From a phage: DNA of 44,735 nucleotides. The stretch is from the sequence record PZ166175.1; one strand, 5' to 3'. The stretch's first letter is position 1; each line of letters starts with the position of its first letter. Under the pieces are notes generated by a model. That model searched no databases, was not told the origin of the DNA, and saw only the letters and a list, made by a program, of their open reading frames with translations. A program made the position numbers and the translations under genes. Shown piece after piece: positions 1 through 44,735 of the stretch.

Positions 1-1343
1 GTCAGCTTGTCGTTATCCGGCACGTATGGCTCTATCGGTGTTCGCATAACCCTACCTGCCGATTGAATCAGGCCGATACCAGACGCTTTCTTCTCGATGA
101 TGATCTTTCGGAGGATGCCATCTGACTGACTGGTTGCCCTTGATTTCTTCTCGAAGTCCAGCAGTTCTGATTCCAACTCTGGTGCCTCCCACTTACCTCT
201 GCGCTGGTCTATCAGGTAAATCTTAGCATCCTTATAGCCCCACAACTGAAGTACAGAGAAGTCACTATAACTCTTTGTAGTCATCGCAGTATCGCAAGTT
301 ATGAATCTGTAATCGTACTTGGCTGGGGGTCTGAATGTGTCGCTAATTCGCTGGAACCAATCCACGTTAATCAGATTTCCACCGAGCGCTACTGGTTCCT
401 GCTGATATTGACTAAGGAAAGTATATGGGTCACTATCCCACATTGCGACCAGGTCATGCACAGATTCCTTTCCTGGGAAGTAGCTGTAATACCTCACACC
501 ATCGCGCTCAACATATTCGCTTGATAGCACGTCATCAATGAATTGCTTTTTAATCCAGTCAGGTAGTGTGTCGATGTAATCTTCAGTAACCAGCGCTGGT
601 ATCTTCACCAAATCAAAATCAATACCCATACCTCCGCTAAGCATGAACCATGTTGAGTCATTGACGTGAAGTCGCTGCTGAATCTGTATAATTGGAGTTG
701 CCTTACCCTTTACAGAGCTTGCGCGGCGCGAACGAATGGTATTGCCAAGCAGTGTGTGACTCTTAGCTCTGTATACAGATGAAAACATCTCGTCTGGCTT
801 GTCGAAGTCATCCAGCATTACCGCGCCACTGTATGTGTCGGTAATATATCCACCACGCGTACCGGTAATTCTACCTCCTTTTGATGCTGATATGGACTCG
901 AATCTAACCTTTCCGTTGTCGTCAACTATCTGAATCTCGTCATCCTTATTTGTCCCGAACTTGCAAGGCCAAAGCTCCTGAAACTCCCTTGATGATATCA
1001 AATCACGAACTCTCTTAGAGTTGCGTTTCACGTTTGAGTCGGCGAAAGAGATATTAAGGTTGCGAACCTTCTTCAGCTTCAGCATCGAGTAGACGGGGAA
1101 GTGGATTGATGTGATTTCTGTTTTTCCGCTGCCCGGCGCTATGTTAATTATGGTATCTTTGCGCTCTCCGGCGATAATCTCGTCAATGATTCTGCACAAG
1201 TACTTGTGATGCCAGTTGGGGATGTATCGCTCGCCCTGGGTGATTTGGAACCAGCACCGAAGAAAACCCTCGAAGCTGTGCTCCGATATAGCCTTAACCG
1301 CCATCTTTTCCTGAATGGTCATTTCTTCCCATACTAAAGACAT
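1..1343 (-). CDS. terminase large subunit, N-terminal about 447 codons; ORF runs off the window start and continues in frame at 44513..44735
   Basis: ATG at 1341-1343 preceded by AAGAGGG RBS; Walker A-like IAPGSGKT; no stop codon before position 1; frame matches the ORF at the window end. Confidence 0.85.
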   Translation of the reverse strand, partial: MSLVWEEMTIQEKMAVKAISEHSFEGFLRCWFQITQGERYIPNWHHKYLCRIIDEIIAGERKDTIINIAPGSGKTEITSIHFPVYSMLKLKKVRNLNISFADSNVKRNSKRVRDLISSREFQELWPCKFGTNKDDEIQIVDDNGKVRFESISASKGGRITGTRGGYITDTYSGAVMLDDFDKPDEMFSSVYRAKSHTLLGNTIRSRRASSVKGKATPIIQIQQRLHVNDSTWFMLSGGMGIDFDLVKIPALVTEDYIDTLPDWIKKQFIDDVLSSEYVERDGVRYYSYFPGKESVHDLVAMWDSDPYTFLSQYQQEPVALGGNLINVDWFQRISDTFRPPAKYDYRFITCDTAMTTKSYSDFSVLQLWGYKDAKIYLIDQRRGKWEAPELESELLDFEKKSRATSQSDGILRKIIIEKKASGIGLIQSAGRVMRTPIEPYVPDNDKL

Positions 1344-1360
1344 GTTATACCCTCTTATTG

Positions 1361-1867
1361 TTATAGCTTACTAATTACGGACTCCAGCGCTTCCTTCATG
1401 CTATCAACGTCGTTAGCTGTGGAGTTATTGCTAATCTTAATCTCCTGCGGCTTATCAATCCCTAGCTCTTTACCAACAATCGTAGAGTTGATGATGCCTG
1501 CAACGCCAAGCTGGTATTTCTGCTCGTAGATTACGTTATCGATAAACTCCATCACGTCAGAGTATCCAGCCTCAGTACGCCAGCGAGCGAATCTATTTAT
1601 ATTAACTCCCATGAATAGCGCCAGGCCAGTTAAGGTGAACACTCGAGGCTTGTGCACTAAACTCTCGCTAACCACGCCCTGGAATGCCGCCGTCTCAATG
1701 GCTTTGATTGCCTCATTCTCAGCCCATGAAAAGTATCTCACTGCAAAGTCAAATACCTCCTCGGGAGTGTACTTGCGGTTGATTGCCACCATGGCAATAT
1801 CGCCATACTTCTTGTTGTATAGCGCCTTGAAATTTCCCTCACCCATCTTTAATGCTGCTTTGCTCAT
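1361..1867 (-). CDS. terminase small subunit (putative)
   Basis: 168-aa ORF immediately upstream of TerL on the same strand; RBS AAGGAGG before the ATG; assignment by position. Confidence 0.5.
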   Translation of the reverse strand: MSKAALKMGEGNFKALYNKKYGDIAMVAINRKYTPEEVFDFAVRYFSWAENEAIKAIETAAFQGVVSESLVHKPRVFTLTGLALFMGVNINRFARWRTEAGYSDVMEFIDNVIYEQKYQLGVAGIINSTIVGKELGIDKPQEIKISNNSTANDVDSMKEALESVISKL

Positions 1868-1884
1868 AAATCCTCCTTTGTTGA

Positions 1885-1905
1885 GGTCAGATTATACCAT
1901 ATTGC
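1885..1905 (-). promoter_or_regulatory. extended -10 promoter candidate (TGGTATAAT) for the terminase operon
   Basis: minus-strand sense reads TGCAATATGGTATAATCTGACC about 30 nt upstream of the TerS start, just downstream of a terminator hairpin. Confidence 0.4.
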
Positions 1906-1910
1906 AGACG

Positions 1911-1933
1911 AAAAAAAGCCCTCAAGCGAGGGC
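1911..1933 (-). terminator. rho-independent terminator (minus strand)
   Basis: GCCCTC-aagc-GAGGGC hairpin followed by a T7 run in minus-strand sense. Confidence 0.55.
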
Positions 1934-1979
1934 TAAAAAACAACGAGAGAAACCAAACTTAACGAGGGTATAACACTTT

Positions 1980-2177
1980 TTACTTTCGCTCACGAACGTA
2001 AGCTACCAGGAATTTGTGAGTATCAGGGTCAGCTCCTGACATCTCCTTTACTTTCGCTACCGCATCCTCAGCGCTGATTGCGGCAACTGACGCGATGTAA
2101 TCTTGAGTGCAGCTCTTACAACTGCGGCCCATTAAGCGAATGGACAACTTCACATCCCACAGGCTACTCATGGTCAT
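1980..2177 (-). CDS. hypothetical protein
   Basis: ORF track 1980..2243 with a likely internal ATG start; overlaps the upstream ORF end. Confidence 0.35.
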   Translation of the reverse strand: MTMSSLWDVKLSIRLMGRSCKSCTQDYIASVAAISAEDAVAKVKEMSGADPDTHKFLVAYVRERK

Positions 2178-2349
2178 TTGCTGATTCTTTTCCGAATAAG
2201 TGATCAAAACCATGCGGAAGATGCGCGGATACAGAAACTCCATTAAGTGAGCCTTTGACCACTCGGGTTTCCGTGAAGTCCATCTTTGCGTTAAACTTCT
2301 GAACGGAACCTGTTTCTGAATCTTTTACGATGAATGTTACAGTTTTCAT
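2164..2349 (-). CDS. hypothetical protein (61 aa)
   Basis: ORF track; same strand as flanking genes. Confidence 0.4.
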   Translation of the reverse strand: MKTVTFIVKDSETGSVQKFNAKMDFTETRVVKGSLNGVSVSAHLPHGFDHLFGKESANDHE

Positions 2350-2380
2350 AATTGAACTCCCTAGAGTTATTGGTTAAATT

Positions 2381-2458
2381 TGGCGCTCCGCACTGGATTC
2401 GAACCAGTAACCTACGACTTAGAAGGTCGTTGCTGCTATCCGATTGAGCTAGCGGAGC
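2381..2458 (-). tRNA. tRNA-Arg (anticodon UCU), with encoded CCA
   Basis: hand-folded cloverleaf: 7-bp acceptor stem GCTCCGC/GCGGAGC, anticodon stem ACGAC/GTCGT with loop CTTCTAA, T-arm ACTGG-TTCGAAT-CCAGT, discriminator G, CCA. Confidence 0.85.
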
Positions 2459-2462
2459 TTTG

Positions 2463-2495
2463 AATGAGTCCCGGTTATGATTCCGGGGTCGCCTT
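2463..2495. repeat. hairpin-containing direct repeat, copy 1 (TCCCGGTTA..TCCGGGG..GCCT)
   Basis: near-identical to 2545..2578; internal CCCGG/CCGGG inverted repeat; immediately 5' of the tRNA in tRNA sense. Confidence 0.4.
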
Positions 2496-2544
2496 TACGA
2501 CCAATTTACAAGATGACATAAATGCCACCCATATAAATCCCGGT

Positions 2545-2578
2545 TACGGCTCCGGGGCTGCCTGATACAGCCGATTAA
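2545..2578. repeat. hairpin-containing direct repeat, copy 2
   Basis: AAATCCCGGTTACGGCTCCGGGGCTGCCT matches copy 1 at most positions. Confidence 0.4.
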
Positions 2579-2818
2579 TATGCCTATTTGCGCTAGGTCT
2601 TGCAAGTCCCATAAGGGGGTGAGGTTTACGCCTTATCCTCTTGGTCCAACATTTCATCCAGTTTTAGGTCGGAATCACCTGCCGCATACGCTACTTAATG
2701 AGCTACGGACTTTTATTCTGCGCTCCGTGCGCCGTTGTGGCTTAGCCACCTCGTTTGTGCATGGCTTTATAGTAGTTAATGCCGCTCAGTGATGCAAGCT
2801 CTTTTTAAACAATCCAAT

Positions 2819-3058
2819 CTATTCGTACAACGATTGACCATTCTCATCATGACCAACACGACCCTTAAGATAACCGCTAGTCCAAACAAATCTGTCCCGA
2901 CTAATGATTGTGAACACTGGCTTCCACATCTTAGAAATCAATGCCGCAACCTGCTTATCGTCCTTGCGCTGCCTTGTCGATAGCTTGCTATACTCCTCGT
3001 TTAACTTTGCCGCTTGGCGTTTAACTGCGTTAAAGTGCGCTTCTGATAATCCGAACAT
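2819..3058 (-). CDS. hypothetical protein (79 aa)
   Basis: ORF track; start overlaps the stop of the upstream small gene (TAATG). Confidence 0.45.
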   Translation of the reverse strand: MFGLSEAHFNAVKRQAAKLNEEYSKLSTRQRKDDKQVAALISKMWKPVFTIISRDRFVWTSGYLKGRVGHDENGQSLYE

Positions 3059-3198
3059 TAATTCAACCCCCTGTTAAAGCTTGCAGTCACTTCCATCATA
3101 TCCCCATCGCAAACGAACTCGTCGCCATATTTCTCATTGAAGTAAATTAAATCATCCACAAACTCTTCTTCATAATAAAATTTACATGTGTTCTTCAT
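3058..3198 (-). CDS. hypothetical small protein (46 aa, MKNTCKFYYEEEF...)
   Basis: hand translation; RBS GAGATTGAGAA before ATG; promoter cassette immediately upstream; below the ORF-track size cutoff. Confidence 0.4.
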   Translation of the reverse strand: MKNTCKFYYEEEFVDDLIYFNEKYGDEFVCDGDMMEVTASFNRGLN

Positions 3199-3214
3199 TT
3201 CTCAATCTCTCGTT

Positions 3215-3276
3215 TTGTTGGTAATGTCATTATATGCCATTCGTGTCAGATGCTTTTAGCTATTCGTGCTATTTTT
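3215..3276 (-). promoter_or_regulatory. early promoter cassette (palindrome + 22 bp + TATAAT)
   Basis: minus sense: AAATAGCACGAATAGCTAAA, 22-nt spacer, TATAAT. Confidence 0.5.
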
Positions 3277-3392
3277 ATCTTCTCTCTCCTTCCATAGATT
3301 CATCAGTTAAAAGTACTGCATAGCCTCTTAGCCAGTCTTAGCCTCATCCATTATTCTTTTAGCCCACTGGCTTGGTAATTCGTAGTTGTCCA

Positions 3393-3554
3393 TTAGTAAA
3401 TTATTACCTCGTCTTTTGAGAGGTAGATATCTTCGCCATTCTTGTTCTTTACGATGTAGCAACTACCATCATCACTCATCTCTGCGAAGAACACATCGCC
3501 GCGCTGAATTAGCGCCACATAATCACTCTCGCCAACATAAACAACCTTAATCAT
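3393..3554 (-). CDS. hypothetical small protein (53 aa)
   Basis: hand translation MIKVVYVGESDY...; RBS AAGGTG; stop overlaps next ATG. Confidence 0.35.
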   Translation of the reverse strand: MIKVVYVGESDYVALIQRGDVFFAEMSDDGSCYIVKNKNGEDIYLSKDEVIIY

Positions 3555-3572
3555 AGAATCACCTTACTTAAA

Positions 3573-3692
3573 TTATAGTTCGTTAGAATGCGTTTTAGCT
3601 TCATCTACTGATGCCGAAATTATGTAAATAATGGCGAAGCCTATAGACCAAAGTAACCACGGTAGAGCCTCAGCAAAAAGCTCGTCTATCAT
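3573..3692 (-). CDS. hypothetical small membrane peptide (39 aa)
   Basis: hand translation MIDELFAEALPWLLWSIGFAIIYIIS...; one hydrophobic helix; weak RBS. Confidence 0.3.
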   Translation of the reverse strand: MIDELFAEALPWLLWSIGFAIIYIISASVDEAKTHSNEL

Positions 3693-3717
3693 TAACCCTG
3701 TGTGCGTATCGCCACCC

Positions 3718-3915
3718 TCAGATTTTGTTAAGTTGCTCAAGAATTTCGTATGCTAGCTCTCGGGCCTGCTCTTCGGTTAAGTGAATGGTGTGAACCTGAG
3801 GTTCATCTCTCATCCCACACGCCTGGGCAATAATGAATGTTGCGTAGCCATCGAAGTGGTTGGCCTGGAGCTTTGGTTCTGATTGTTGAAATCTCATTTC
3901 TTCTTCCTCGTTCAT
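3718..3915 (-). CDS. hypothetical protein (65 aa)
   Basis: ORF track; promoter cassette directly upstream. Confidence 0.5.
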   Translation of the reverse strand: MNEEEEMRFQQSEPKLQANHFDGYATFIIAQACGMRDEPQVHTIHLTEEQARELAYEILEQLNKI

Positions 3916-3980
3916 TTCGATGGGGTAACTATAGCAAGTTACCCCAATACTGTTTTAGCAATTAGTGCTATTTAGCATTC
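3905..3980 (-). promoter_or_regulatory. early promoter cassette
   Basis: minus sense: AAATAGCACTAATTGCTAAA, 22 nt, TATAGT, TACCCCATCGAAATG; box lies in a GGGGTAACT/AGTTACCCC inverted repeat. Confidence 0.5.
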
Positions 3981-4111
3981 TTTGACAACTTCACACCACT
4001 TAATAGTTCCCCCAAGAACCCTCTGCTGATCAAATGCTTCTTTAAAATCCTCATAAACCCGAACATGCTTCACGCTGTTAAATTTACCAGTGTTGTACGT
4101 ATGGATGTAAA

Positions 4112-4336
4112 TCATTTCTTTGTCACCTCATCCCAGTTAGTCAGGTATGCCGCATTAACGCTAAGCGCCTCGTATTTGCGTGATGACTCGAAGTCACTGA
4201 CGTCGAACTGCTGATTGTTGATCTGCTTAACTACCTCTTTTGCAACCGCGATATGCTCTGATGGCGTATGGTAGCTGAATTGAACAAAGCTCTTCAGGAT
4301 TACTGCGTCTTTCTCTGACAGGTTAATTGTAATCAT
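4112..4336 (-). CDS. hypothetical protein
   Basis: ORF track 4112..4375; start moved to the ATG with AAGGAAAA RBS (MITINLSEK...). Confidence 0.45.
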   Translation of the reverse strand: MITINLSEKDAVILKSFVQFSYHTPSEHIAVAKEVVKQINNQQFDVSDFESSRKYEALSVNAAYLTNWDEVTKK

Positions 4337-4346
4337 ATTGTTTTCC

Positions 4347-4451
4347 TTAGTTGTTGAAATACGCGTAAAACTCAAAATAACTCATGTATGATAAGAATCC
4401 AAAAATCAAAATAACCGTCAATACAACTAAAGCTTCAAATGACTTTGGCAT
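4347..4451 (-). CDS. hypothetical small membrane peptide (34 aa)
   Basis: hand translation MPKSFEALVVLTVILIFGFLSYMSYFEFYAYFNN; RBS GAGAGGAAG; cassette upstream. Confidence 0.4.
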   Translation of the reverse strand: MPKSFEALVVLTVILIFGFLSYMSYFEFYAYFNN

Positions 4452-4454
4452 TTT

Positions 4455-4528
4455 TTCTTCCTCTCGCTTGGTGTGGGCTAACTATAACAAAACCCGCCGG
4501 ACCGGGTTTAGCAATTCGCGCTATTACC
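4455..4528 (-). promoter_or_regulatory. early promoter cassette with terminator-like hairpin in the spacer
   Basis: minus sense: AATAGCGCGAATTGCTAAA, 22 nt containing a CCCGG..CCGGG hairpin, TATAGT. Confidence 0.45.
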
Positions 4529-4780
4529 ACCACTAATTGATTTAGACGATTCATGAATCATCTTCTGCCCGTAAAGCTCCTTAGATTTCTGTAATGAATC
4601 AATCGAGTCATTGAGGTCGGTAAGGTAACCCTTATGGCCTCGTAGCCCAAGGCACAATAGCTTCTTGATTGCGTGCTGAGTTGCCGGGTCTGCCACGTGG
4701 AATGCATCTAGAACGCGATATACATCCACCGTAGTTACTGTTCCATCCAGGCTAATAATTTTACGTTCGTACTTGCTCAT
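4508..4780 (-). CDS. hypothetical protein (90 aa)
   Basis: ORF track; ATGA start/stop overlap with the upstream small gene. Confidence 0.5.
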   Translation of the reverse strand: MSKYERKIISLDGTVTTVDVYRVLDAFHVADPATQHAIKKLLCLGLRGHKGYLTDLNDSIDSLQKSKELYGQKMIHESSKSISGGNSANC

Positions 4781-4860
4781 ATCTCAATCCTCGTTATTGT
4801 GCCGCCATGCGTATTAAGCATGAGTTTTGCGTATTTTTCGTCTACATAGTGCAGGAGCAT
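4777..4860 (-). CDS. hypothetical small protein (27 aa)
   Basis: hand translation MLLHYVDEKYAKLMLNTHGGTITRIEI; RBS AGGGGTG; ATGA overlap with downstream gene. Confidence 0.3.
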   Translation of the reverse strand: MLLHYVDEKYAKLMLNTHGGTITRIEI

Positions 4861-4972
4861 ATCAGCACCCCTGATGCTGAACTTATGTTCGTATATGGTC
4901 AATAAAATTCCTTTCGTGTGGTTGATATGGGGATTATACCAGTCAGGATGAATCCCCTTTTAACGAAAGGTT

Positions 4973-5077
4973 CTATTTGATAAACACCAGAAAAATAATC
5001 ACCAGGAGCAGGGTCGCCAATGATAATCCAAGCATCAACAGTTGCATCAACAGTTGCATCACATCAGATGACTTCAT
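4973..5077 (-). CDS. hypothetical small membrane peptide (34 aa)
   Basis: hand translation MKSSDVMQLLMQLLMLGLSLATLLLVIIFLVFIK; ATGA overlap with upstream gene; contains a 12-bp tandem duplication. Confidence 0.35.
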   Translation of the reverse strand: MKSSDVMQLLMQLLMLGLSLATLLLVIIFLVFIK

Positions 5078-5283
5078 ATCGCCTCCGCCTCGTACGCCGC
5101 CAGGATTAATGCCGCCGCCAGTTTGCGGGCTTGATCAGGGCTGTATCGCATAACCGTCTGGCCGTCTCCATTGTCGTAAGGATCGAAATCCAGATACACA
5201 ACCGCTCCTTGATCGGCGCTACCTATACTTACCTCAGCCCGATCAAAGCACTGATCTTCTACTAGAACAGCTTCCATAATCAT
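5074..5283 (-). CDS. hypothetical protein
   Basis: ORF track 5074..5331; start moved to MIMEAV... after RBS AAAGAGGAAA because the cassette box lies inside the longer ORF. Confidence 0.45.
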   Translation of the reverse strand: MIMEAVLVEDQCFDRAEVSIGSADQGAVVYLDFDPYDNGDGQTVMRYSPDQARKLAAALILAAYEAEAI

Positions 5284-5284
5284 T

Positions 5285-5356
5285 TCCTCTTTGTTTTCGA
5301 TGGGGTAATCATAGCTGACTACCCGATCCATTGTTTAGCAATTCGTGCTATTTACC
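5285..5356 (-). promoter_or_regulatory. early promoter cassette
   Basis: minus sense: AAATAGCACGAATTGCTAAA, 22 nt, TATGAT, TACCCCATCGAAAAC. Confidence 0.5.
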
Positions 5357-5441
5357 ACTCAGGAGTGATTTAGCTTTCCGGTAGAACTCAATGGCCGCTT
5401 CCACCTCTTCCTCGCTGTACCGCAAGTGGTATGGTAGTCTA

Positions 5442-5990: not shown

Positions 5991-6287
5991 GTTGATACCT
6001 CGTTTCGTTTACTTCGTTTCAGTGATTGCCATCTTGCCACTTGTTTACGTGTCGGTCAACGTATTTTTATGTCTATTCCATCGCGTATACGTTTTTTCGG
6101 CCTTCAAGGTAGCGTCAGCACTGGTTGTAAACGCGCCGTATCCCCTGTATACCGTTTTTGAGGGTACTTTCCTATATATGTGCCTTTTTATTCCTACAAT
6201 GTCATCCCTTTCCTACAAGTGTCAGAATATCTGCGCGGAACATATCAATTATCTCACCAATGATCGGTATACACAGTATACATATAT

Positions 6288-6308
6288 ATAATAATAATAA
6301 TAATAATA
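6288..6308. repeat. (ATA)7 microsatellite inside a block shared with 24125..24187
   Basis: ataataataataataataata read directly; paralogous block has (ATA)5. Confidence 0.8.
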
Positions 6309-6519
6309 AAGTAAAATGTTGATATATATAGATATTATATTGTATATCGTGTGTATATCTCGCGTAAAAACGTAGGTTAGTGTTCGCTAACTTTTGTGAC
6401 GACACTGAGTATACATGGGTTACGCGTATGCGAAAAATGGCCCGGCAAGAATAAAAATCAACTTGTATGGTAGTCCTTCAATCCTTCATTCACTCACCCA
6501 CCACTTCATTTCACTTTTC

Positions 6520-6605
6520 GCAACAATCAAAAACATCATTGCATCTGAAGCAATATTGCTATATGTGCAATAATCACGTGAATCATTGCAATATCTGCAA
6601 CAATA
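6520..6605. repeat. iteron-like array, five GCAAYAAT copies plus GCAATATTGC and CACGTG palindromes
   Basis: gcaacaatc, gcaatattg, gcaataatc, gcaatatct, gcaacaata within about 85 bp of non-coding DNA. Confidence 0.5.
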
Positions 6606-6616
6606 CATAAATCTTA

Positions 6617-6691
6617 CGAATAGCACTTTTTGCTAAAGACATTAGGGTCTGGTGGGGCTATAGTTAACTCACCAACAGCGAGGGTGTAGAT
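6617..6691 (+). promoter_or_regulatory. early promoter cassette (plus orientation)
   Basis: AATAGCACTTTTTGCTAAAG, 23 nt, TATAGT, then RBS and ATG at 6692. Confidence 0.5.
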
Positions 6692-7055: not shown

Positions 7056-7065
7056 GGATTGAGAT

Positions 7066-7466: not shown

Positions 7467-7519
7467 AGCCCTTCGGGGATTTTCCTGTATATTCATCTCA
7501 TCGAAACGGAGGATTTGAA
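7445..7519 (+). promoter_or_regulatory. early promoter cassette
   Basis: AAATAGCACTAATTGCTAAAG, 22 nt, TATATT, CATCTCATCGAAAC, GGAGG, ATG. Confidence 0.5.
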
Positions 7520-18759: not shown

Positions 18760-18825
18760 ATGCCTGAAAGATGATACAATCCAATTTAGCAATTCTTGCT
18801 GTTTTACAAATGGAGACTTTACACA
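18760..18825 (+). promoter_or_regulatory. tail fiber promoter candidate (TGATACAAT) with palindrome TTTAGCAATTCTTGCTGTTTT downstream of the -10
   Basis: extended -10-like TGATACAAT then the cassette-type palindrome between -10 and start codon. Confidence 0.4.
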
Positions 18826-21231
18826 ATGGCAATTTATGACTTAGGAACAGCATCACTAGCTGCAAATGGCGAGGTGACTGGAGTCGGTACGACATGGAAA
18901 GCACCACTCACTCTAATTCGAGTTGGTGCAACTATTGTATTTAAAACTGAGCCAGTTAAGATTTATACTATCTCTGAAATTATCAGCGACACTCAGATTA
19001 ATGTTTATAACCCTAATTCTGAAACTGTTCCTGCTGGGACTGGTTACGCGATTCTTGCTCACGATGGAATTACAGTTCAGGGGTTGGCTCAGGATGTTGC
19101 AGAAACCCTTCGTTACTATCAGTCGCGTGAAACAGAAGTTGCAGATGCTGTTGATGCATTTAACAATTTTGACTCTGCTGATTTTAAATCAAAGGTAACG
19201 CAGGTAAACACGCAGTACGGTGATGTTGTTACGATTGCAGAACAGGTAAACACGAAGTACGGTGATATTGTTACGATTGCAGAACAGGTTTCAAGTGATG
19301 CATCATCATCACAAATTAACGCCACCAATGCATCATCTTCCGCCGATAGAGCACAAGCAGCGGCAAACTCCGTGTCTGGATCATTAACTTTAAACTTCTC
19401 AGATGGAGGAACGGTAGAGTCTAAAAATCAGCAGGTTTTATACATCAATGGAAGTGATGTTAAGTCTTATGTCTGGACTGGGTCATTCCCGAAGACGATT
19501 CCAGCTGGCTCAACCCCAGATAGCGCAGGTGGTGTTGGTGCTTACTCATGGGTCAAGATTTATGACTCAAACCTGTTTGATTACGATGGTTTAAGTTCAA
19601 TCGGTAAGGTTAAATCAGTTTCAGAGTTATCTTGTTTGTCAGGTGAGATTGGTATTACTACGATTGAGCTAGAGTCTTATGTGGCTGGATTCAACCTAGG
19701 CGGTGGTACTCTTATCGCGTCAGATGCATCACTTCAGGTTAATAATGTAACTGTTTTTTCAGGGGACGGCGTCACATGGAGCCGTAAACTTAACGGTAGA
19801 AGAGCAACAGTATATGATGCTGGTTACACTGGTGATGGTGATATAGCTGCGGCAATAAACTCAGTAAACATGGCTGGCCTTGACTGCGTTGTTCCTGTAG
19901 ATGGCCTTGTGCAATCACAGATAAACATCGACGTATCAAGAGGTTCATTGATAGGCGAGAACAAGTGCAATATTAAAGAGTCCCCTGGTGCTGTTGGTGA
20001 ATATTTCGTAAACATATTCAACTCAAATACTGATTATGTTGATAGAGACTCGATATCATCAACATCATTGATATCTGGGATTTCATTTACTGGCCTTGGA
20101 GCACGCAAGTTCTGTGTAGGTGGATCAACATCAGGTGAGACTGGCGAATTAAGAATCGAGAACTGCGGAATCATATCAACTGGTGGAATTGAGTTCTTAG
20201 ACAACTCATATAGGATTCTTTTTGATAAGTGCGCAATAAGCAGGAGTTTTAATGAGACAATAACTTTTAGGTCGAGAGCTAACTCTGGTGAAGTTATGAA
20301 GTTTAATCACTGCTGGATTGTAGATAACGGAGGCCCAATCACCTTTGAGAATGGTCAGTTTATTTTTGATTCATGCTCGTTACCGGCAGGTAAAAAGAGT
20401 GGCTATTTTGACCCCACAGTAAGTCTGCACGATAACGCGACGGTAGTTTTCTCAAATGGAAATATAGAGTATCAGCCAGGTCAGAACTTCGTATCATTCC
20501 TGGTCACGGGAAGTTCGAGATTAAGCATAAAAGACACCACCATTCTTGTTCCGGATGGTTTTACGTCTGTTCCAATCGTAAGTAATGATGATGGCGTTGT
20601 AATCTTGAATAATTGTTCGCTTCCTCTATACGGAAGTACCACAATTGCTTCTGGTTTCCAAGCAAGGCAAGTTGTCGGCGGGTCTAGTAAAAAGGTTATC
20701 GCGAGAGGGTGCTTTCCGAGGGCTGGATTCCCTGTTAGTGATTGGAGCAAGGGATCAATTGTTAGCCCTTACATTAACAGCTTAAGCAATGGCAGCGGAC
20801 AGTTTCAGAATACTTCCAACTGGTCACTGTCGCAAACTTCTTCTGGATCGGTTACTGCCTCTATTGTCTCGCAGGTGCCCACAGGTATAACTGCTCAGTT
20901 TGATAGGTCATTCCTTTTGAATGTACCTGACTTAAACTCATCAGCGAACTTTACCACTAATGCTTATGATTGCGAGCCGGGTAGATACTTCCAGTTCGGA
21001 TTTTGGGCCATGAACACAACAAAAACATTAGCAAGTATTAGATTTTTAGATATTTCTGGTAATGCTGTTGAGGAATCTGTAGGTTACTACATACCGAAAG
21101 GTGGTATCTTCTCTTTTTACGCTCTTATATCAACGGTTCCCCAGGGTGCATATAGAGCCGAGATAAACTTTAACGTAGGACCATCCACTGGCTACCTTAT
21201 GTTACACAATGTTATTTATGGATTGATTTAA
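18826..21231 (+). CDS. tail fiber protein (putative)
   Basis: ORF track 18796..21231, start moved to MAIYDLGTASLA...; long Ser/Thr/Gly/Asn-rich protein; internal tandem duplication. Confidence 0.6.
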   Translation: MAIYDLGTASLAANGEVTGVGTTWKAPLTLIRVGATIVFKTEPVKIYTISEIISDTQINVYNPNSETVPAGTGYAILAHDGITVQGLAQDVAETLRYYQSRETEVADAVDAFNNFDSADFKSKVTQVNTQYGDVVTIAEQVNTKYGDIVTIAEQVSSDASSSQINATNASSSADRAQAAANSVSGSLTLNFSDGGTVESKNQQVLYINGSDVKSYVWTGSFPKTIPAGSTPDSAGGVGAYSWVKIYDSNLFDYDGLSSIGKVKSVSELSCLSGEIGITTIELESYVAGFNLGGGTLIASDASLQVNNVTVFSGDGVTWSRKLNGRRATVYDAGYTGDGDIAAAINSVNMAGLDCVVPVDGLVQSQINIDVSRGSLIGENKCNIKESPGAVGEYFVNIFNSNTDYVDRDSISSTSLISGISFTGLGARKFCVGGSTSGETGELRIENCGIISTGGIEFLDNSYRILFDKCAISRSFNETITFRSRANSGEVMKFNHCWIVDNGGPITFENGQFIFDSCSLPAGKKSGYFDPTVSLHDNATVVFSNGNIEYQPGQNFVSFLVTGSSRLSIKDTTILVPDGFTSVPIVSNDDGVVILNNCSLPLYGSTTIASGFQARQVVGGSSKKVIARGCFPRAGFPVSDWSKGSIVSPYINSLSNGSGQFQNTSNWSLSQTSSGSVTASIVSQVPTGITAQFDRSFLLNVPDLNSSANFTTNAYDCEPGRYFQFGFWAMNTTKTLASIRFLDISGNAVEESVGYYIPKGGIFSFYALISTVPQGAYRAEINFNVGPSTGYLMLHNVIYGLI
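19201..19284 (+). repeat. 42-bp tandem duplication (x2) inside the tail fiber gene
   Basis: caggtaaacacgcagtacggtgatgttgttacgattgcagaa repeated with 2 mismatches; encodes QVNTQYGDVVTIAE / QVNTKYGDIVTIAE. Confidence 0.85.
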
Positions 21232-36687: not shown

Positions 36688-36702
36688 GTATTTTTCCTTT
36701 TG

Positions 36703-37104
36703 TTAGTCTAGACGAACATAAAAACGAACCGGGATAAACCACCCAGACTTGGATTTGATAACAGGGTTAACAACTCCAGACTCATAAATGGTCCCGCTGT
36801 CAAGCATTGTACCATCAACGATAGATTCTGCCAATTGATTAGCGATTTGCCTGGGTCTATCAATTCCAGTTCCCGGGCTGAAGAACACTGAAATCTGCAC
36901 CATTCCTACATAGTATTTACACTTCCTACTCAGTCCGTAGGTTACAGTGTCAACTTCCGTGTAGTCGTACTTAAGCCAGATTGACCCATCTGCCGGAGGT
37001 GTGAATGCAGCATTCTCCCACGCAACTGGATATCTGACCGGAAACTCACTCACCAGTAAATCATTGACGAATTTCCTTGCCGCTAATGATAATTCATATT
37101 GCAC
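36703..37104 (-). CDS. tail completion / tail terminator protein (putative)
   Basis: 133-aa ORF; assignment by position only. Confidence 0.4.
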   Translation of the reverse strand: MQYELSLAARKFVNDLLVSEFPVRYPVAWENAAFTPPADGSIWLKYDYTEVDTVTYGLSRKCKYYVGMVQISVFFSPGTGIDRPRQIANQLAESIVDGTMLDSGTIYESGVVNPVIKSKSGWFIPVRFYVRLD

Positions 37105-38308: not shown

Positions 38309-38334
38309 TAAAGGACGCCGAAGCGCCCTGTTTG

Positions 38335-38580: not shown

Positions 38581-38644
38581 TTTTGTCTCCTTTGTTTATC
38601 TGATTGAGTGATTATAACCCAACAATTCCATTTGGTACAGACGT

Positions 38645-38668
38645 AAAAAAAAGCCCTCCGAAGAGGGC
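38645..38668 (-). terminator. rho-independent terminator downstream of major capsid protein gene
   Basis: GCCCTC-cgaa-GAGGGC followed by T8 in minus sense. Confidence 0.65.
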
Positions 38669-38674
38669 GATTTA

Positions 38675-39616
38675 TTACTCGAAGGTAATACCCTTCATTA
38701 CAGCCATCGTCAGTGGACGATAAACAATCAAACCTGTAGCTTTTGATGTTACAGGGTACTTAAAGTGCAAGTCCTTGGGTTGCCCAGGAAGTACGTTAGT
38801 AGCTTCTGGAATCTCAATAGACATATTGAGTGGATTCTTTTCAAACGCCAGAGCAGCCTTGCCACCTGCGCCATCGTAGTTGTCCAGGAATTGAAGATAA
38901 CGCAGATTGATACCCGAGTTGTTGGTAGCGAACAGCTGCGCGTAACTGATAGAGGTGTTGGGAACCAGCTCTTGCATCATGCGGCGAGCGGAAGCAGGCA
39001 GCAAGATATCAGTTGCGGTGTGAGTGCCATTGGTCGAAGTCTCGATTGCATCAATAAGTGCGGTGATATCATTCATGGCAGCAGCTGCGGAGTTCCACGT
39101 ACCAGCAACAACGTTGTTGATGTTCGGATGGTCAAATACGCTCACGATACCGTGCGGAGAGGAACCAGACCAAACCAGTTTATCAAGCAGGTTGTCGTGA
39201 GCTTCGAAAGCCAATGCCTGTTTGCGAGTCGACAGAGACTGACCAGTTGCGGCGCCAGCTTTAATTTCATCAGTAGAAATCAGGAATGCGTTACCGAAAC
39301 GGAAAACTTTACCCTGTTTCTCAGTCATGAAGGCATCAACCAGCGGCAAGTCGTCAGAGTAATCAGCGATAATCTGAGCAATGCCAGCACCATCAAATTC
39401 TGGGTATTCGAAATACTTCGCGTGACCAGGAATTTCATTTGTTACAGGGAAGATATTAACAACTGAGTTTTCTGCGTATTCTTTTTCGTAAGCGCGATTC
39501 AGAGCAGCGGTAAGCTGGCTAACAGTCCAGACACCAGCGGCATCTGCTTTATCTACGCCCATTTGCTCGAGGTGAGCGGTGATTTTTGCTTGCTCTGCAT
39601 CAAATTTAATGGCCAT
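38675..39616 (-). CDS. major capsid protein (putative)
   Basis: 313-aa ORF in the head module, followed by a strong terminator; assignment by size and position. Confidence 0.6.
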   Translation of the reverse strand: MAIKFDAEQAKITAHLEQMGVDKADAAGVWTVSQLTAALNRAYEKEYAENSVVNIFPVTNEIPGHAKYFEYPEFDGAGIAQIIADYSDDLPLVDAFMTEKQGKVFRFGNAFLISTDEIKAGAATGQSLSTRKQALAFEAHDNLLDKLVWSGSSPHGIVSVFDHPNINNVVAGTWNSAAAAMNDITALIDAIETSTNGTHTATDILLPASARRMMQELVPNTSISYAQLFATNNSGINLRYLQFLDNYDGAGGKAALAFEKNPLNMSIEIPEATNVLPGQPKDLHFKYPVTSKATGLIVYRPLTMAVMKGITFE

Positions 39617-39708
39617 TCTTTATTGTTCCTTTTCAGTTATGTGTATACGGATTCATTATACAGTAGGGCGACCGCAAATCAACAGATAAGTTAGTCGCCC
39701 ATAATTCG

Positions 39709-40281
39709 TTAGCTCGCGATGATCTTAGCTACGCGAAGCTGAGCGAGAAGGTCGTTTAGCTTAGCGCCTACTGCGTTAACTGCCGTGGTAGCTGAGGTGG
39801 CTACCTCTGAGGCTTCAGCGCCAGTCACGCCCTGGATCCCAACGTCATCGACAGCCGAACCTGCAACAAACTTATTGCCAGGCATAGCTTGGTTTTCACC
39901 AGTGCCAACAATCGGGGCAAAAGTGGCTGGTTTTCCGGTTACGTCAGCCCAAGATACTGAAACAGCACCGCCTGAACTTCCTTTATATGCGTAAGCAAAG
40001 AATTGACCCGCCGACAGGCTCAGGCTTGATGTGTCAATGGTAAATCCGTCATTAGACGCGGCCTCAATGGCTTCGAACAGCTTGCGCATATTTGTGGAGG
40101 TGATCACCTTGGCTTCAGTGATTGAACTATCAGCTCCCTTGGCAACAACGATGGAATATGACTGAGAGCCATTTACCGTGATTTTGCTTACTGGCTGAAA
40201 GCCTGCCGTTATAGCCGCTTTCAATAGTGCATTGAATCGTCCGCTATCTGCGTTGATAGCCTTAACTTCGGTGTAAGCCAT
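39709..40281 (-). CDS. hypothetical head-associated protein (190 aa)
   Basis: ORF track; Ala/Ser/Gly-rich. Confidence 0.4.
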   Translation of the reverse strand: MAYTEVKAINADSGRFNALLKAAITAGFQPVSKITVNGSQSYSIVVAKGADSSITEAKVITSTNMRKLFEAIEAASNDGFTIDTSSLSLSAGQFFAYAYKGSSGGAVSVSWADVTGKPATFAPIVGTGENQAMPGNKFVAGSAVDDVGIQGVTGAEASEVATSATTAVNAVGAKLNDLLAQLRVAKIIAS

Positions 40282-40336
40282 GATTTATCTCCTTTTCTAA
40301 GTGACAATTGAATATAACATAGGCGTAATTTGATTA

Positions 40337-40359
40337 CAAAAAAACCTCCCGAAGGAGGC
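40337..40359 (-). terminator. rho-independent terminator downstream of the 169-aa head gene
   Basis: CCTCC-cgaa-GGAGG followed by T7 in minus sense. Confidence 0.6.
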
Positions 40360-40376
40360 TTTATATATCTTAATTA

Positions 40377-40886
40377 TTAAGCTGCAACAGTTGAGTCTGC
40401 GGATTGAATAAGCTGAACTTCAACTAGTGCGCCATCAACGCTTAGATCTTGCGGGTCTGTGCCCTTGTTTTTGATGTAACCACCAGCAAATGTAAAACCA
40501 GTCTCCCAAGTAGTGGTGGCAGCCTTAGCAGCAACAACACCACTCGAGTTTACGTAAACCTTGCTACCAAAGTCCGGCGCAGCATCTAGAGTTGTACGAA
40601 CCCAGATTCGACCATGAGTCATTACGTTAACCGCTTCTTTTACGCGAGCTGTGCCATCTGGAGTCTCGTAATGAGATTTAACAACAACACCATAAGGTTT
40701 AACTGCCGTGCCAGTTACGACTGGGAGTCCAACAACCTTGTGACCATCTACAGGCTGAGCGGATGTAACGCCAACAAAAGTGCCAACCTGAATTGGTGCT
40801 GCACCGCCAACCACACAAGCGCCGTCGATGTTATACAGAGAAGTATCGGAAACCATACCAGCCAGTGCTACGGAACGAATTGCCAT
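40377..40886 (-). CDS. hypothetical abundant head protein (decoration-type candidate)
   Basis: 169-aa ORF followed by its own terminator. Confidence 0.4.
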   Translation of the reverse strand: MAIRSVALAGMVSDTSLYNIDGACVVGGAAPIQVGTFVGVTSAQPVDGHKVVGLPVVTGTAVKPYGVVVKSHYETPDGTARVKEAVNVMTHGRIWVRTTLDAAPDFGSKVYVNSSGVVAAKAATTTWETGFTFAGGYIKNKGTDPQDLSVDGALVEVQLIQSADSTVAA

Positions 40887-40898
40887 GTTTATAACTCC

Positions 40899-41984
40899 TT
40901 ATTTCTTAATTTTAGCTAAACGAGCACGCGGGTCTAATTTCTTAGGCTCATTGGCGCTGTCATATTTGTCGGAAGCGGTAGTCGCTTTACGTACTTCAGC
41001 CATTTTATCAGATTCTTTGGCAATGTCGAACGCTGCGTCGATGTACGCGTCAGACTTCTCGGAAACATCAAGGCCGGAGACTTCTTTAACGTAAGCAACT
41101 TTAATGCCTTTAGCATCCAGACCGTCAGCCTTAACACCAGCCTCAGCAGCAACAGCAACCAGGGCGGCAAGGGCATCAGCGTCAGCTTTCGCTTTAGCCA
41201 CGGCAGCTTCGATTTCAGCAGGCATTGCATCAACTTTAGCTTTCAGTGCATCGCGCTCAGCAATTGCGGTGTCAGCCTTTGCGTTCAGCGCTTCGATGTG
41301 AGAAGCGATTTCCGGGGCGACCTCAAATTCCTGTGCGCCGTCGAGTTTAATCTTAATCATTTCCTGTTTATCCTCTTTATTGATATCAACGTCAGTAGTA
41401 TACGGGTTTTCCTGCTCACCGTCCATATTCAATTTGGCAATACCTGCTCGACCTCTATATACCATTGCGAGATGGTTCACTTTAATGTCACGCTGAATTG
41501 CGTCGAACTCCTGCCAACCATCTGGCACATCGAATTGCTCACCATCAGACTTAAGTACGTACTCGCCAGTAATAGGATCACCCCAGCCAGGGGTTTCGTC
41601 AAGAATTGCAGAGTAACCAACGGATAACTCCTTGGCGTTACCTGCCATAGCTTCCTGAATGGCTGTGTTATCGTAAACAACAATCGGAGCAACCACTGAG
41701 CTACCTAATGGCTCAGCTTTGCCAGTAACGGAACCTACCACCACCTCTTTAGCGTTCTCTGAGTTAACGAAAACATGGTCAAGAGTCATTGGCTTACCCT
41801 GGTAACTTTCCAGAGATTCATCCTTGAAAACCTCCTCGGCTGGGCGAAACTCTCGAACCGTGCGACCGTCATCCATGTAGTAGACTTGCACGCCGAGACG
41901 TGCGACCACTGGTGTATCGACTAAGAAACCGTTCTCGTCAATTGTTGCTTTAAACTTTACACTGTCATAGCGGGTTTTACACAT
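40899..41984 (-). CDS. scaffolding-like protein with Ala/Lys-rich coiled-coil C-terminus
   Basis: ORF track 40899..41999 (GTG); start moved to MCKTRYD... after RBS GAGGAGG. Confidence 0.45.
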   Translation of the reverse strand: MCKTRYDSVKFKATIDENGFLVDTPVVARLGVQVYYMDDGRTVREFRPAEEVFKDESLESYQGKPMTLDHVFVNSENAKEVVVGSVTGKAEPLGSSVVAPIVVYDNTAIQEAMAGNAKELSVGYSAILDETPGWGDPITGEYVLKSDGEQFDVPDGWQEFDAIQRDIKVNHLAMVYRGRAGIAKLNMDGEQENPYTTDVDINKEDKQEMIKIKLDGAQEFEVAPEIASHIEALNAKADTAIAERDALKAKVDAMPAEIEAAVAKAKADADALAALVAVAAEAGVKADGLDAKGIKVAYVKEVSGLDVSEKSDAYIDAAFDIAKESDKMAEVRKATTASDKYDSANEPKKLDPRARLAKIKK

Positions 41985-42032
41985 CCCAATCCTCCTCACT
42001 AAAAGCCATCAAATTCATCATTTATCCTCACA

Positions 42033-42761
42033 TTATGATTCCCAATCAGGAACTGACCAGCAACGACAACCGTATTCTTGACCTGGAAATATATCAGCGC
42101 CACCAAGTTTAAAGCTAAGACCTTCTCTCGCTATATGCGATTGTCGCTCTCTTTCATCTAGCATTCCATGCCAGACGTATCGGCTAACACCAGCATCCTC
42201 AAGCCTGCGTCTCATAAGTGTTGAGTTCAGACTTGAGACAATTCCAGATGCAATATTTGCCGTTCGCTTCCTGTATGTTTTGTACCTATCGGATAACTTA
42301 ACGTAGTCCCCACTCTGGATTGTTGACGCCGTCTGCAAAAAGTCATCTTTAATGTTATTCAGCAATTTAATCACTGACTTGTTTGTGGTGTAAACCCACT
42401 GATTAAGGTCATCATTATACCAAGGCTCATCGCCATTGATGCCATTAACTTCAAGGTCTAGAACGCTAGGGTTTGACCTTCCACCGGTCTTAATTGCAAG
42501 CACAAGAAATTGAGAGCTATTGTATCTGTATATAGCTGCACCTATGGCTGGGATGGTTGATATAAATGAAGACACCAGTGCCGCAATTACCCCGTCAAGA
42601 TATCCTTCCTCTTCCTCCAGCTCCTCTGCAGTATCAATTTTAAGTCTTGTTGCTGATTCCCTCATTGCTGAAATTAGCTCAGTTACCGCAATGCTAAGAT
42701 TGCGGTTTACCTGGCTCTCAATTGTCTGTGGGTACTTCCAGCGGGTCATTACTGGTTTCAC
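42033..42761 (-). CDS. head morphogenesis protein (Mu F / SPP1 gp7-like)
   Basis: 242-aa ORF directly downstream of portal; C-terminal motif RQSHIAREG...FPGQEYGCRCW; start may be internal because it overlaps the portal gene. Confidence 0.55.
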   Translation of the reverse strand: MKPVMTRWKYPQTIESQVNRNLSIAVTELISAMRESATRLKIDTAEELEEEEGYLDGVIAALVSSFISTIPAIGAAIYRYNSSQFLVLAIKTGGRSNPSVLDLEVNGINGDEPWYNDDLNQWVYTTNKSVIKLLNNIKDDFLQTASTIQSGDYVKLSDRYKTYRKRTANIASGIVSSLNSTLMRRRLEDAGVSRYVWHGMLDERERQSHIAREGLSFKLGGADIFPGQEYGCRCWSVPDWES

Positions 42762-43986
42762 TAATTGTCACCTCTGTTTCTACTGAACCGTCACTAATCT
42801 TAACCTCTGGAGCGATTGTGCGCAATGTGTCTCTTGCCTCATCAATATCCATAGCGCCAGCTGCAATTAGTGTCGCAATGCTGTTTACGTTCTTCTCAAG
42901 AATCTCGGCCTTATCCTTACTTGATTCCTGCGCTAGGGGATAAAACTCAACTGACCATTCGTCAACGTTAACAATGAACGGGATTAGGAACTCAAGAATA
43001 GGAAGCAGTTCAGAGTTACGCTTGCGGTCAATTAGCTTGTGGAATGTCTCCAGCGCTGTATTCTGGCTTGAGGATACGCCGCCAACGTTCTTATTCTTCA
43101 GGATAATCTCATGAATACCGCTCAGCGCAACAATTCTGTCAAACTTCTTATCCAGGAACGCATCAATCCCGCCAATATCAGAGTTTAGAATGCTATACTC
43201 TTCAGATTCCGCGTCAATGCCAATCGCCTGACCAACGCCGCTATTGTTGTCAACCTGCGCAAGTCGTAATCTTGCAGCGCCAAACCCTTCGCTATCATCA
43301 CACAACTCAGCCAAGCCTTTCGCTTTCCACACTGCTTGCTGCTTTCGTCTCAGTAGTTGGGTAGCGAGTCTTTCGCAGTTGGTGTAATCCTTGATTGAGT
43401 CAAGAATATCACTGGATAGAACGCTTCGGCCCCAGCCATCATTCTGCCGACGCATTGCGTTAGGAATTCGCTCTCCGCCAATGATGTGAATTCTGCTGTA
43501 GTGTACATCATAGAACATATCGCTCTCATCAGTGGTGATTCGATAGGTTAGTGGCTTGCCAAAACGTGCGTTGCGGGGATTCTCTTCGCGAGTTTGTACT
43601 TTTACTTGAGTACGGTCGTAAACGCGAACGGTTTCAAGCTCAGCACCTTCTCTGACCGGACTTGTTAGCGCCCTATTGTCCTTAACGATAGCTACAATTG
43701 CAGCCCCACCGAATAATCTAGCCCACGACCATGCGTCGTTAATATTCTGCGTCATTTCTAGGTCATCCCAGCGAGACCAGAATGCAGGCTCATCATCAAT
43801 ACCATCAATGTGGAATCCTGCCGCTAATGCTGTCTCAGGGATTGTGTCGATAATTCTACGCACTATGGCATTATTTGCATAAAGCGAACCCAGAATTGTA
43901 GGTTCCTGATTCTGTAAGCTCCCGTAAATCTCACTACCATCACTGTCGCCGAGAAATATATTGGCGTAGCTGTCTGTCTTGACCAT
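42718..43986 (-). CDS. portal protein
   Basis: ORF track 42718..43998 (TTG); start moved to MVKTDSY... after GGAGAAAAAC; size and position after TerL. Confidence 0.65.
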   Translation of the reverse strand: MVKTDSYANIFLGDSDGSEIYGSLQNQEPTILGSLYANNAIVRRIIDTIPETALAAGFHIDGIDDEPAFWSRWDDLEMTQNINDAWSWARLFGGAAIVAIVKDNRALTSPVREGAELETVRVYDRTQVKVQTREENPRNARFGKPLTYRITTDESDMFYDVHYSRIHIIGGERIPNAMRRQNDGWGRSVLSSDILDSIKDYTNCERLATQLLRRKQQAVWKAKGLAELCDDSEGFGAARLRLAQVDNNSGVGQAIGIDAESEEYSILNSDIGGIDAFLDKKFDRIVALSGIHEIILKNKNVGGVSSSQNTALETFHKLIDRKRNSELLPILEFLIPFIVNVDEWSVEFYPLAQESSKDKAEILEKNVNSIATLIAAGAMDIDEARDTLRTIAPEVKISDGSVETEVTISETSNDPLEVPTDN

Positions 43987-43997
43987 GTTTTTCTCCA

Positions 43998-44021
43998 ATA
44001 AAAAAGCCCCATGTAGGGGCT
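43998..44021 (-). terminator. rho-independent terminator between the inserted gene and portal
   Basis: AGCCCC-atgta-GGGGCT followed by TTTTTTATT in minus sense. Confidence 0.55.
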
Positions 44022-44042
44022 AGTTTATCACACGGCTTTTAA

Positions 44043-44441
44043 TTACTCGAATTTTACTTCGAACTTGATTGTGTCGCACTTTACACCATCCTCACTAAGC
44101 TCATCTACAGTATAGCGAACACTCCCGAACTCAATCATGTCAACCTCATGCCCGTTTATGTAATATCTAAGTTTTGGTTTTTCATCATTGAGAGTTGGTT
44201 TTTCATTATTGAGAGTTGGCGTGACTACACATTCGGTCTCAGTCACAAAGTTGTCATCTACACCAAGCAGATTGAAATTATGGAGCGATCCGTTTTTAAC
44301 GCAACGGTGACTATTATTATCATCGCAAAGTTCAATAAATCCACCGTGAAAATCGCAAACATCATATTCCTTACCTACGGTGAAGCCCCAATAATCTCCA
44401 TCCGTGCTGCCAAGATATACGGCTTTTAATTTGGTTGTCAT
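44043..44441 (-). CDS. hypothetical Cys-containing protein, inserted gene between TerL and portal
   Basis: ORF track; own early-type promoter cassette and own terminator; internal 21-bp tandem repeat. Confidence 0.55.
   Translation of the reverse strand: MTTKLKAVYLGSTDGDYWGFTVGKEYDVCDFHGGFIELCDDNNSHRCVKNGSLHNFNLLGVDDNFVTETECVVTPTLNNEKPTLNDEKPKLRYYINGHEVDMIEFGSVRYTVDELSEDGVKCDTIKFEVKFE
44175..44216 (-). repeat. 21-bp tandem repeat (x2) inside the inserted gene
   Basis: ttggtttttcatcattgagag / ttggtttttcattattgagag; encodes PTLNNEKPTLNDEKP. Confidence 0.8.
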
Positions 44442-44444
44442 TTG

Positions 44445-44520
44445 TTTTTTCTCCTCTCGTTTGTGTAAGTTAACTATAAGCCATCCGTGTCTTTGGTGTT
44501 TAGCAATTCGTGCTATTTAA
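44445..44520 (-). promoter_or_regulatory. early promoter cassette overlapping the TerL stop codon
   Basis: minus sense: AAATAGCACGAATTGCTAAAC, 22 nt, TATAGT, TAACTTACACAAACGAGAGGAG, ATG. Confidence 0.5.
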
Positions 44521-44735
44521 TTCCAGCTATGCGCATTAATCGCGCTTTGGGATCATCCGCGATGTTAAGCACCAGGTTGATTGCCATTGTCATGGTATCA
44601 ATTTGGTCGTCGTGCTTATGCGAGTCATCCGCCGTAAAAGCTGCAATCTCAGTAAGCAATCCGTTTAACCACGGTGCGGACTCAGGAAGAACTACGTTGC
44701 CAGCTTTAATCTGTGGCAATGCGCTCATTACGCGA
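44513..44735 (-). CDS. terminase large subunit, C-terminal continuation of the ORF that starts at 1343
   Basis: reading frame from position 1 joins across the window junction (codon uses positions 2, 1 and 44735); ends ...HKHDDQIDTMTMAINL... Confidence 0.75.
   Translation of the reverse strand, partial: RVMSALPQIKAGNVVLPESAPWLNGLLTEIAAFTADDSHKHDDQIDTMTMAINLVLNIADDPKARLMRIAGIK

Follow-up and report, generated by a model that had tools for sequence, protein, structure and literature searches.

A terminase large-subunit gene divided by the ends of the record of a complete Rtp-like Escherichia coli phage genome

Packaging of DNA by T1-like phages has been reported to be initiated at a packaging site (pac) and to proceed by the headful mechanism from concatemers, so that the virion DNA is linear, terminally redundant, and partly permuted (PMC8421802, PMC4070988), and terminal redundancy and circular permutation have been described for the genomes of these phages (PMC4070988). 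Evidence from individual phages includes a submolar pac fragment and a measured redundancy of approx. 1 kb per headful for TLS (PMC11447400), a PhageTerm call of headful packaging from a pac site for MSK (start at position 36,862, forward direction; PMC8421802), and circular restriction maps with no cohesive-end (cos) site found for SU57 (PMC7718038); the terminase large subunit (TerL) of T1 itself is only approx. 54% identical to the Rtp-type TerL (PMC7718038). Here, we describe the phage record PZ166175.1, a stretch of 44,735 bp (hereafter “the window”, i.e., the whole stretch of DNA that was analysed), in which the gene encoding TerL is divided between the two ends of the record. On comparison with its relatives, the window is the complete unit-length genome of a virulent Rtp-like E. 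coli siphophage (Drexlerviridae, Braunvirinae).

Two described phages are particularly informative for comparison. Escherichia phage BEK6 (MN158208; 46,736 bp; TerL, QGH76848) shares with the window the order terminase small subunit (TerS)–TerL–portal as well as circular collinearity; its record was opened just upstream of terS and its terminase genes are, therefore, intact. BEK6 differs from the window in having a 150-nt open reading frame (ORF) between terS and terL and in lacking a small structural gene between terL and the portal gene, and its nucleotide identity to the window (approx. 88–90%) indicates that the two do not belong to the same species. Escherichia phage Rtp (NC_007603; the type phage of Rtpvirus) shares with the window the family, the genome plan, a tRNA-Arg gene, an rtp22-like gene following terL, and a divergent AT-rich intergenic region, but carries between terS and terL an HNH endonuclease gene that is absent from the window. 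The Rtp record was opened in this intergenic region (window 6560/6561), not within a gene.

The terminase gene across the record ends

The terL ORF is located on the minus strand; it begins with an ATG at positions 1343–1341 and stays open through 447 complete codons to base 3. Bases 2, 1, and 44735 make up the next codon (448; ACT, Thr), which is followed by Arg-Val-Met-Ser-Ala, with the stop codon (TAA) found at 44515–44513; once the two ends are joined, the ORF is 1566 nt long and encodes 521 aa. A first-pass annotation, made from the letters of the sequence, had claimed that the ORF starting at 1343 meets no stop before position 1 and that an ORF at 44513..44735 continues it in frame; coordinates and frame were both found to be exact, and translation of the minus strand with the end joined to the start ran unbroken over the 521 aa, with neither a stop codon nor a frame break. 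Within the last 240 nt of the window, the minus strand is open only in the frame that continues TerL, the other two being closed. The 5′ part of the gene (1..1343, minus strand; codons 1–447 and the first two bases of codon 448) codes for the ATPase domain together with the N-terminal two-thirds of the nuclease domain, as supported by translation, a match to PHROG 38, identity to BEK6, and invariant residues. The 3′ part (44513..44735, minus strand; the third base of codon 448, codons 449–521, and the stop codon) carries the invariant acidic motif HKHDDQID of the nuclease domain, as supported by a Terminase_6C match, invariant residues, and the predicted fold. In the cell, the terL gene is uninterrupted and encodes a normal protein of 521 aa.

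Comparisons with other phages place the two ends side by side. When the joined protein was searched against annotated TerL genes by tblastn, all 521 aa aligned as a single ungapped piece (97.1% identity to BEK6, 96.9% to JeanPiccard, and 82.9% to Rtp), and in 1304 phage records a single locus accounted for 80% or more of the query. Among 5.8 billion proteins searched, the top 120 TerL homologues were all 514–541 aa long and covered 94–100% of the joined protein (99–100% in all but seven), the best being 98% identical. This agrees with the first-pass reading of the ORF as TerL and places it in the T1 family, the nearest relatives belonging to the Drexlerviridae, subfamily Braunvirinae. At the nucleotide level, base 1 and base 44735 correspond to adjoining bases in five independent sequences, i.e., phage MSK (42932/42933), BEK6 (2019/2020), the ENA contigs NODE_585 (11874/11875) and k141_1427240 (11346/11347), and OEQN01000088 (11157/11156), and a four-way alignment passes through the join (CGCGA/GTCAG) without a gap. 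An exact 40-mer spanning the junction was found well inside three metagenome contigs; it was not found in the IMG/VR viral contigs. The adjacency of the two ends, which had been assumed when the circular reading was proposed, is thus borne out by adjacent bases in the five sequences and by the 40-mer in the three contigs. A search for direct repeats of at least 5 nt common to both ends of the window found none; together with the adjacency of the ends in relatives, this indicates that the record comprises exactly one unit length after trimming and that no bases were lost or doubled at the join.

The join could in principle be an artefact, in which case the ends would lie apart in the real genome and coincidence or misassembly would account for the open frame. 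No support for this explanation was found; in an exact look-up, the joined 521-aa protein, its fragments of 447, 73, and 71 aa, and the portal protein were not on record, while the exact TerS alone was present. Five independent sequences with adjacent ends, three contigs that hold the junction 40-mer internally, and gap-free full-length alignment of the joined protein to hundreds of TerL genes stand against an artefact, which we consider effectively refuted by these sequence comparisons.

The joined protein presents the organisation of a large terminase, with a predicted N-terminal packaging ATPase and a predicted C-terminal RNase H-like nuclease. PHROG 38 (terminase large subunit) matches aa 9–508 (E = 1.5e-107), and the N-terminal and C-terminal halves also have PHROG matches of their own (phrog_4758 to aa 9–257). 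The Pfam model PF17289, Terminase_6C, which represents the RNase H-like nuclease domain, matches aa 349–501 above the gathering score (E = 4.6e-8), placing the join at aa 448 inside the nuclease domain; no N-terminal terminase Pfam model scored above threshold on the joined protein. In an alignment of 37 sequences reaching down to 49% identity, the invariant residues include K74 and T75 of the P-loop (PGSGKT, which does not have the canonical [AG]xxxxGK[ST] spacing), D178 and D179 of the Walker B motif (AVMLDD), Q222, Q223, and R224, D351 and E417, and D490, D491, and D494, the three aspartates of HKHDDQID; invariant putative catalytic residues thus stand on both sides of the join. The segment HKHDDQIDTMTMAINL, which had been read as resembling a terminase nuclease, corresponds to residues 487–502 of the joined protein and includes HKHDDQID. 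That reading holds up: the segment lies at the end of the Terminase_6C match, its three aspartates are invariant, and in a structure model they open the last long helix of an RNase H-like domain that matches solved terminase nuclease domains.

This model was made of P0016, a homologue 98% identical to the joined protein, and had a mean predicted local distance difference test score (pLDDT) of 86.2. A fold search with the P0016 model returned large terminases as all of the top PDB matches, including the TerL of PhiV-1 (8dgc_E, E = 4e-20) and those of D6E, T4 (gp17), T7, and Sf6 (gp2); further matches were isolated terminase ATPase domains, including those of T4 gp17 and P74-26, and the nuclease domains of G20c, RB49, P74-26, human cytomegalovirus, and herpes simplex virus terminases. 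By sequence, no PDB terminase was found either with phmmer (full protein or C-terminal 205 aa) or with hmmsearch using a profile of the 37 sequences. The solved TerL proteins of PhiV-1 (8DGC), D6E (5OE8), T4 (gp17, 3CPE), and Sf6 (gp2, 4IFE) share the same two-domain fold of P-loop ATPase and RNase H-like nuclease, with sequence identities to the window TerL of just 10–15%. Based on the secondary-structure map of the model, D351 appears to end strand 1 of the nuclease domain and E417 to end strand 4, while D490–D494 appear to open the last long helix, a layout that would correspond to the usual RNase H-like arrangement. The cut leaves the third acidic motif on a different fragment from the first two, so that neither fragment could be a working nuclease.

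TerL also looks mosaic when compared with ENA contig NODE_585 (10526–12097); the C-terminal 217 aa (nuclease) show approx. five differences, while the N-terminal 300 aa (ATPase) are approx. 72% identical, which suggests a recombination breakpoint near residue 305.

Genome completeness and relatives

The first-pass annotation had concluded from the wrap-around ORF that the window is a whole genome cut inside the terminase gene, and comparisons over the full length of the window support this conclusion. The length of 44,735 bp falls within the range of complete-genome relatives (43–50 kb), and size, the presence of one tRNA-Arg, and a T1-like module order agree with those described for this group (PMC4070988). 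The minus-strand tRNA-Arg (anticodon tct) occupies 2381–2458; related Braunvirinae also have one, and one has been reported for T1-like phages. Modules for head and tail formation (head protease, major head protein, tape measure protein, J-like tail fibre, and a second tail fibre) and for replication and repair (primase, two helicases, exonuclease VIII, and a repair exonuclease) are all present. Aligned to BEK6, the window makes one full turn of the same circular map; BEK6 aligns with approx. 84% of the window, mostly at 80–92% identity and in a single circular order, and the ends of the BEK6 record correspond to window 1867/1868, just upstream of terS. The ends of the Rtp record likewise correspond to adjacent window bases (6561/6560). 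As the ends of both records map to adjacent bases of the window, the three records represent permutations of one circular map.

Records assigned to Veterinaerplatzvirus and Rtpvirus cover 73–90% of the window at 85–90% identity, and none of the records in the phage collection reaches the species-level identity of 95% over the genome, the best being BEK6. The window may thus represent a previously undeposited Braunvirinae species (approx. 88–90% nucleotide identity to BEK6 over approx. 84% of the window) in which packaging would start in a conserved, repeat-bearing, AT-rich intergenic region at window 6470–6560; this combined reading, built from sequence comparison, is put forward tentatively, and we judge it somewhat more apt to fail than to hold.

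Because the sequence closes perfectly without a terminal repeat, one might also propose a truly covalently closed circular replicon at rest, i.e., a plasmid, a phage-plasmid, or an excised prophage, rather than a linear virion genome. However, neither the 5,426 complete E. coli genomes nor the 72,556 plasmid records searched contained a match to the terS-terL region, on which grounds the prophage and plasmid readings were rejected; in addition, the near relatives are all virulent Drexlerviridae isolated as lytic phages, and the gene content throughout is that of Rtp and BEK6. A resting circular replicon is, therefore, highly improbable.

Two close relatives of this coliphage group bear the deposited names “Campylobacter phage A110b” and “Pseudomonas phage PsgS01F” (MG065688.1, PP134917.1), and the latter is identical in length (44,679 bp) and match statistics to the E. 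coli phage vB_EcoS_UALMA_PCEc3. Contamination of laboratories by T1-like phages is known (PMC13164509), which makes the Campylobacter and Pseudomonas host assignments questionable.

Packaging mode, candidate pac region, and cut point

Closure of an ORF across the ends establishes that the record is circular and by itself does not show a packaging mode. The window closes into a circle without fixed ends, which is needed for pac-type headful packaging and is not specific to it; genomes with direct terminal repeats and cos genomes also assemble into circles. For this phage, headful packaging of terminally redundant, permuted DNA is suggested by homology to T1, Rtp, TLS, MSK, and SU57. TerS (168 aa) is encoded at 1361..1867 on the minus strand, 17 nt upstream of TerL, and matches PF16677, GP3_package (E = 4.3e-13), and phrog_606 (E = 2.8e-57); it belongs to the P22 gp3 family and is 95–98% identical to the TerS proteins of Rtp, BEK6, and vB_EcoS-2005IV. 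As TerS and TerL are 95% and 83% identical, respectively, to those of Rtp, and as TerS belongs to the gp3 family, we infer that the same mechanism probably operates here. The proposal of terminal redundancy and headful packaging that accompanied the first-pass annotation was, therefore, correct as a statement of consistency, the terminases being homologous to those of a headful family, and went beyond what this sequence demonstrates.

An alternative is that the virion DNA has fixed physical ends, i.e., short or long direct terminal repeats or cohesive ends, with the repeat collapsed on assembly, in which case the cut would be arbitrary and there would be neither headful packaging nor permutation. 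ORF closure alone cannot separate genomes with direct terminal repeats or cos ends from headful genomes, and PhageTerm has been inconclusive for several Drexlerviridae (PMC7718038, PMC13164509). On the other hand, both terminase subunits are closely similar to those of Rtp, in a family with documented pac-type headful packaging (PMC11447400, PMC8421802, PMC4070988), SU57 has no cos site and a circular restriction map (PMC7718038), and the window TerS is of the P22 gp3 type. Fixed ends thus appear unlikely, although we give them more credence than the resting circular replicon.

A divergent AT-rich intergenic region of approx. 700 bp (5991..6691, annotated on the minus strand) is our best available guess for the site of the first packaging cut, which would place this cut 4.6–4.7 kb upstream of terS. 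The region was recognised from its sequence, a strand switch, TTGCA-type repeats, and the mapping of the Rtp record ends and of the MSK start. GC skew switches in this region, which contains an (ATA)7 run at 6288–6309, several TTGCA-containing direct and inverted repeats at 6506–6604, and a 42-nt block that matches the start of the Rtp record exactly. The PhageTerm start of MSK (36,862) maps to window 6470 and base 1 of Rtp maps to window 6560, both within the region. In P22 and Sf6, a gp3-type TerS recognises a pac site within its own gene; here, in contrast, homology points to a candidate outside terS.

Under the proposed mechanism, TerL would work with the P22-gp3-type TerS, and the terminase would recognise the pac site on replicated concatemers. 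The first cut would be made at pac, most likely in the AT-rich intergenic region at window ~6470–6560, and head filling would then proceed in the terS-to-terL direction, i.e., towards lower window coordinates. Each of a small number of consecutive headfuls would end with a cut slightly beyond one genome length, and the resulting virion DNA would be linear, terminally redundant, and partly circularly permuted; it is this redundancy and permutation that would cause reads to assemble into a circle without fixed ends.

Several points weigh against this reading as applied to this phage. The position of pac is taken from two indirect pointers, the start of the Rtp record and a single MSK PhageTerm coordinate from a record labelled UNVERIFIED. 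PhageTerm results for SU57 were ambiguous, with several candidate ends and no submolar fragment (PMC7718038), and those for KanT1 gave no obvious termini (PMC13164509); the packaging mode probable for this phage is that of its relatives. Furthermore, because the exact joined protein is not on record, the continuity of terL in this very genome is supported through close relatives, with at most 98% protein identity and approx. 91% DNA identity. Overall, we nevertheless consider it very probable that the window is an arbitrarily opened, complete, circular Rtp-like genome for which pac-type headful packaging would apply.

The record is a circular assembly, trimmed of any overlap and written as a linear sequence from an arbitrary point in terL codon 448, inside the nuclease domain. 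The cut is approx. 6.5 kb away from the candidate pac region and has none of the features of a terminus. Conceivably, the window start could be a genuine physical DNA end, for example if a headful cut or pac site lay within terL; with a T1-like redundancy of 1–3 kb per headful and packaging from approx. 6.5 kb downwards, the ends of later headfuls could fall near terL (inference from PMC11447400). However, headful cuts are imprecise and would not give an assembly with a single defined end, the positions indicated for the first cut are 6.5 kb distant, and no repeat or overlap is present at the ends; moreover, sibling records of one study (see below) were opened at many unrelated points, indicating that assemblers open circles arbitrarily. 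We, therefore, regard a physical end at this position as very improbable, and the cut point itself carries no biological information.

Neighbouring genes and consequences for annotation

The order TerS–TerL–small structural gene–portal, with all genes on the minus strand, appears only once the ends of the window are joined. The gene between terL and the portal gene (44043..44441, minus strand) encodes a small virion structural protein, a homologue of rtp22 (phrog_14592, E = 1.2e-33). This gene is optional; it is present in the window and in Rtp and is absent from BEK6 and from three OE* metagenome contigs. A 21-nt tandem duplication (44174–44219; 2.2 copies, 96% match) was observed within it and adds an in-frame repeat of 7 aa. 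The portal protein is encoded at 42718..43998 on the minus strand (phrog_146, E = 2.6e-126). Elsewhere in the window, the gene for an 811-aa tail fibre (18796–21231) contains a 42-nt tandem repeat (19201–19289; 2.1 copies, 95% match) that results in an in-frame repeat of 14 aa.

The first-pass annotation had warned that the arbitrary cut could lead to a truncated terminase annotation, and this effect was found in practice. In the mechanical ORF list of the linear window, the 5′ part of terL is omitted as it runs off the end, leaving only a 71-aa ORF (44513–44728). A similar case is presented by the 44,219-bp record of vB_EcoS-2005IV (MK907244.1), which represents a Braunvirinae phage and was likewise opened arbitrarily inside a terminase gene; a cut inside terL was initially suspected for this record and was rejected, as the cut was found inside terS rather than terL. 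Because of this cut, its TerS is annotated as 143 aa from an internal Met instead of 168 aa, i.e., 25 aa short. While the window is trimmed exactly to unit length, MK907244.1 keeps an identical sequence of 127 bp at both ends (1–127 and 44093–44219), inside terS; this repeat is probably an untrimmed assembler overlap, which would give a true unit length of 44,092 bp. Dozens of records from one study (within MK907226–MK907276) have the identical length of 44,219 bp, although their starting points are unrelated and both orientations occur; they are probably arbitrarily opened circular assemblies of the same kind, and possibly all carry the same 127-bp overlap.

Gene calling on the linear record would yield a 3′-truncated TerL of 447 aa without a stop codon and an orphan ORF of 71–73 aa, and such a truncated TerL could mislead TerL-based phylogeny, prediction of packaging type, and scoring of genome completeness. 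Suitable points for re-opening the record are the start of terS (window 1867, reverse-complemented, as in BEK6 and PMC4070988) or the position equivalent to the start of the Rtp record (6560). The wrap-around ORF also represents cheap positive evidence that the contig is a complete genome trimmed exactly to unit length. The elements described here are of known, ordinary kinds, i.e., a T1/Rtp-type TerL, a Braunvirinae genome, and a record opened arbitrarily; mildly new are a phage absent at the species level from the collections searched and a homology-based pointer to a pac region. The cut itself brings no new biology and matters mainly for annotation; if packaging does start within 6470–6560, the 42-nt block shared with Rtp would be a candidate pac element of the T1 family.

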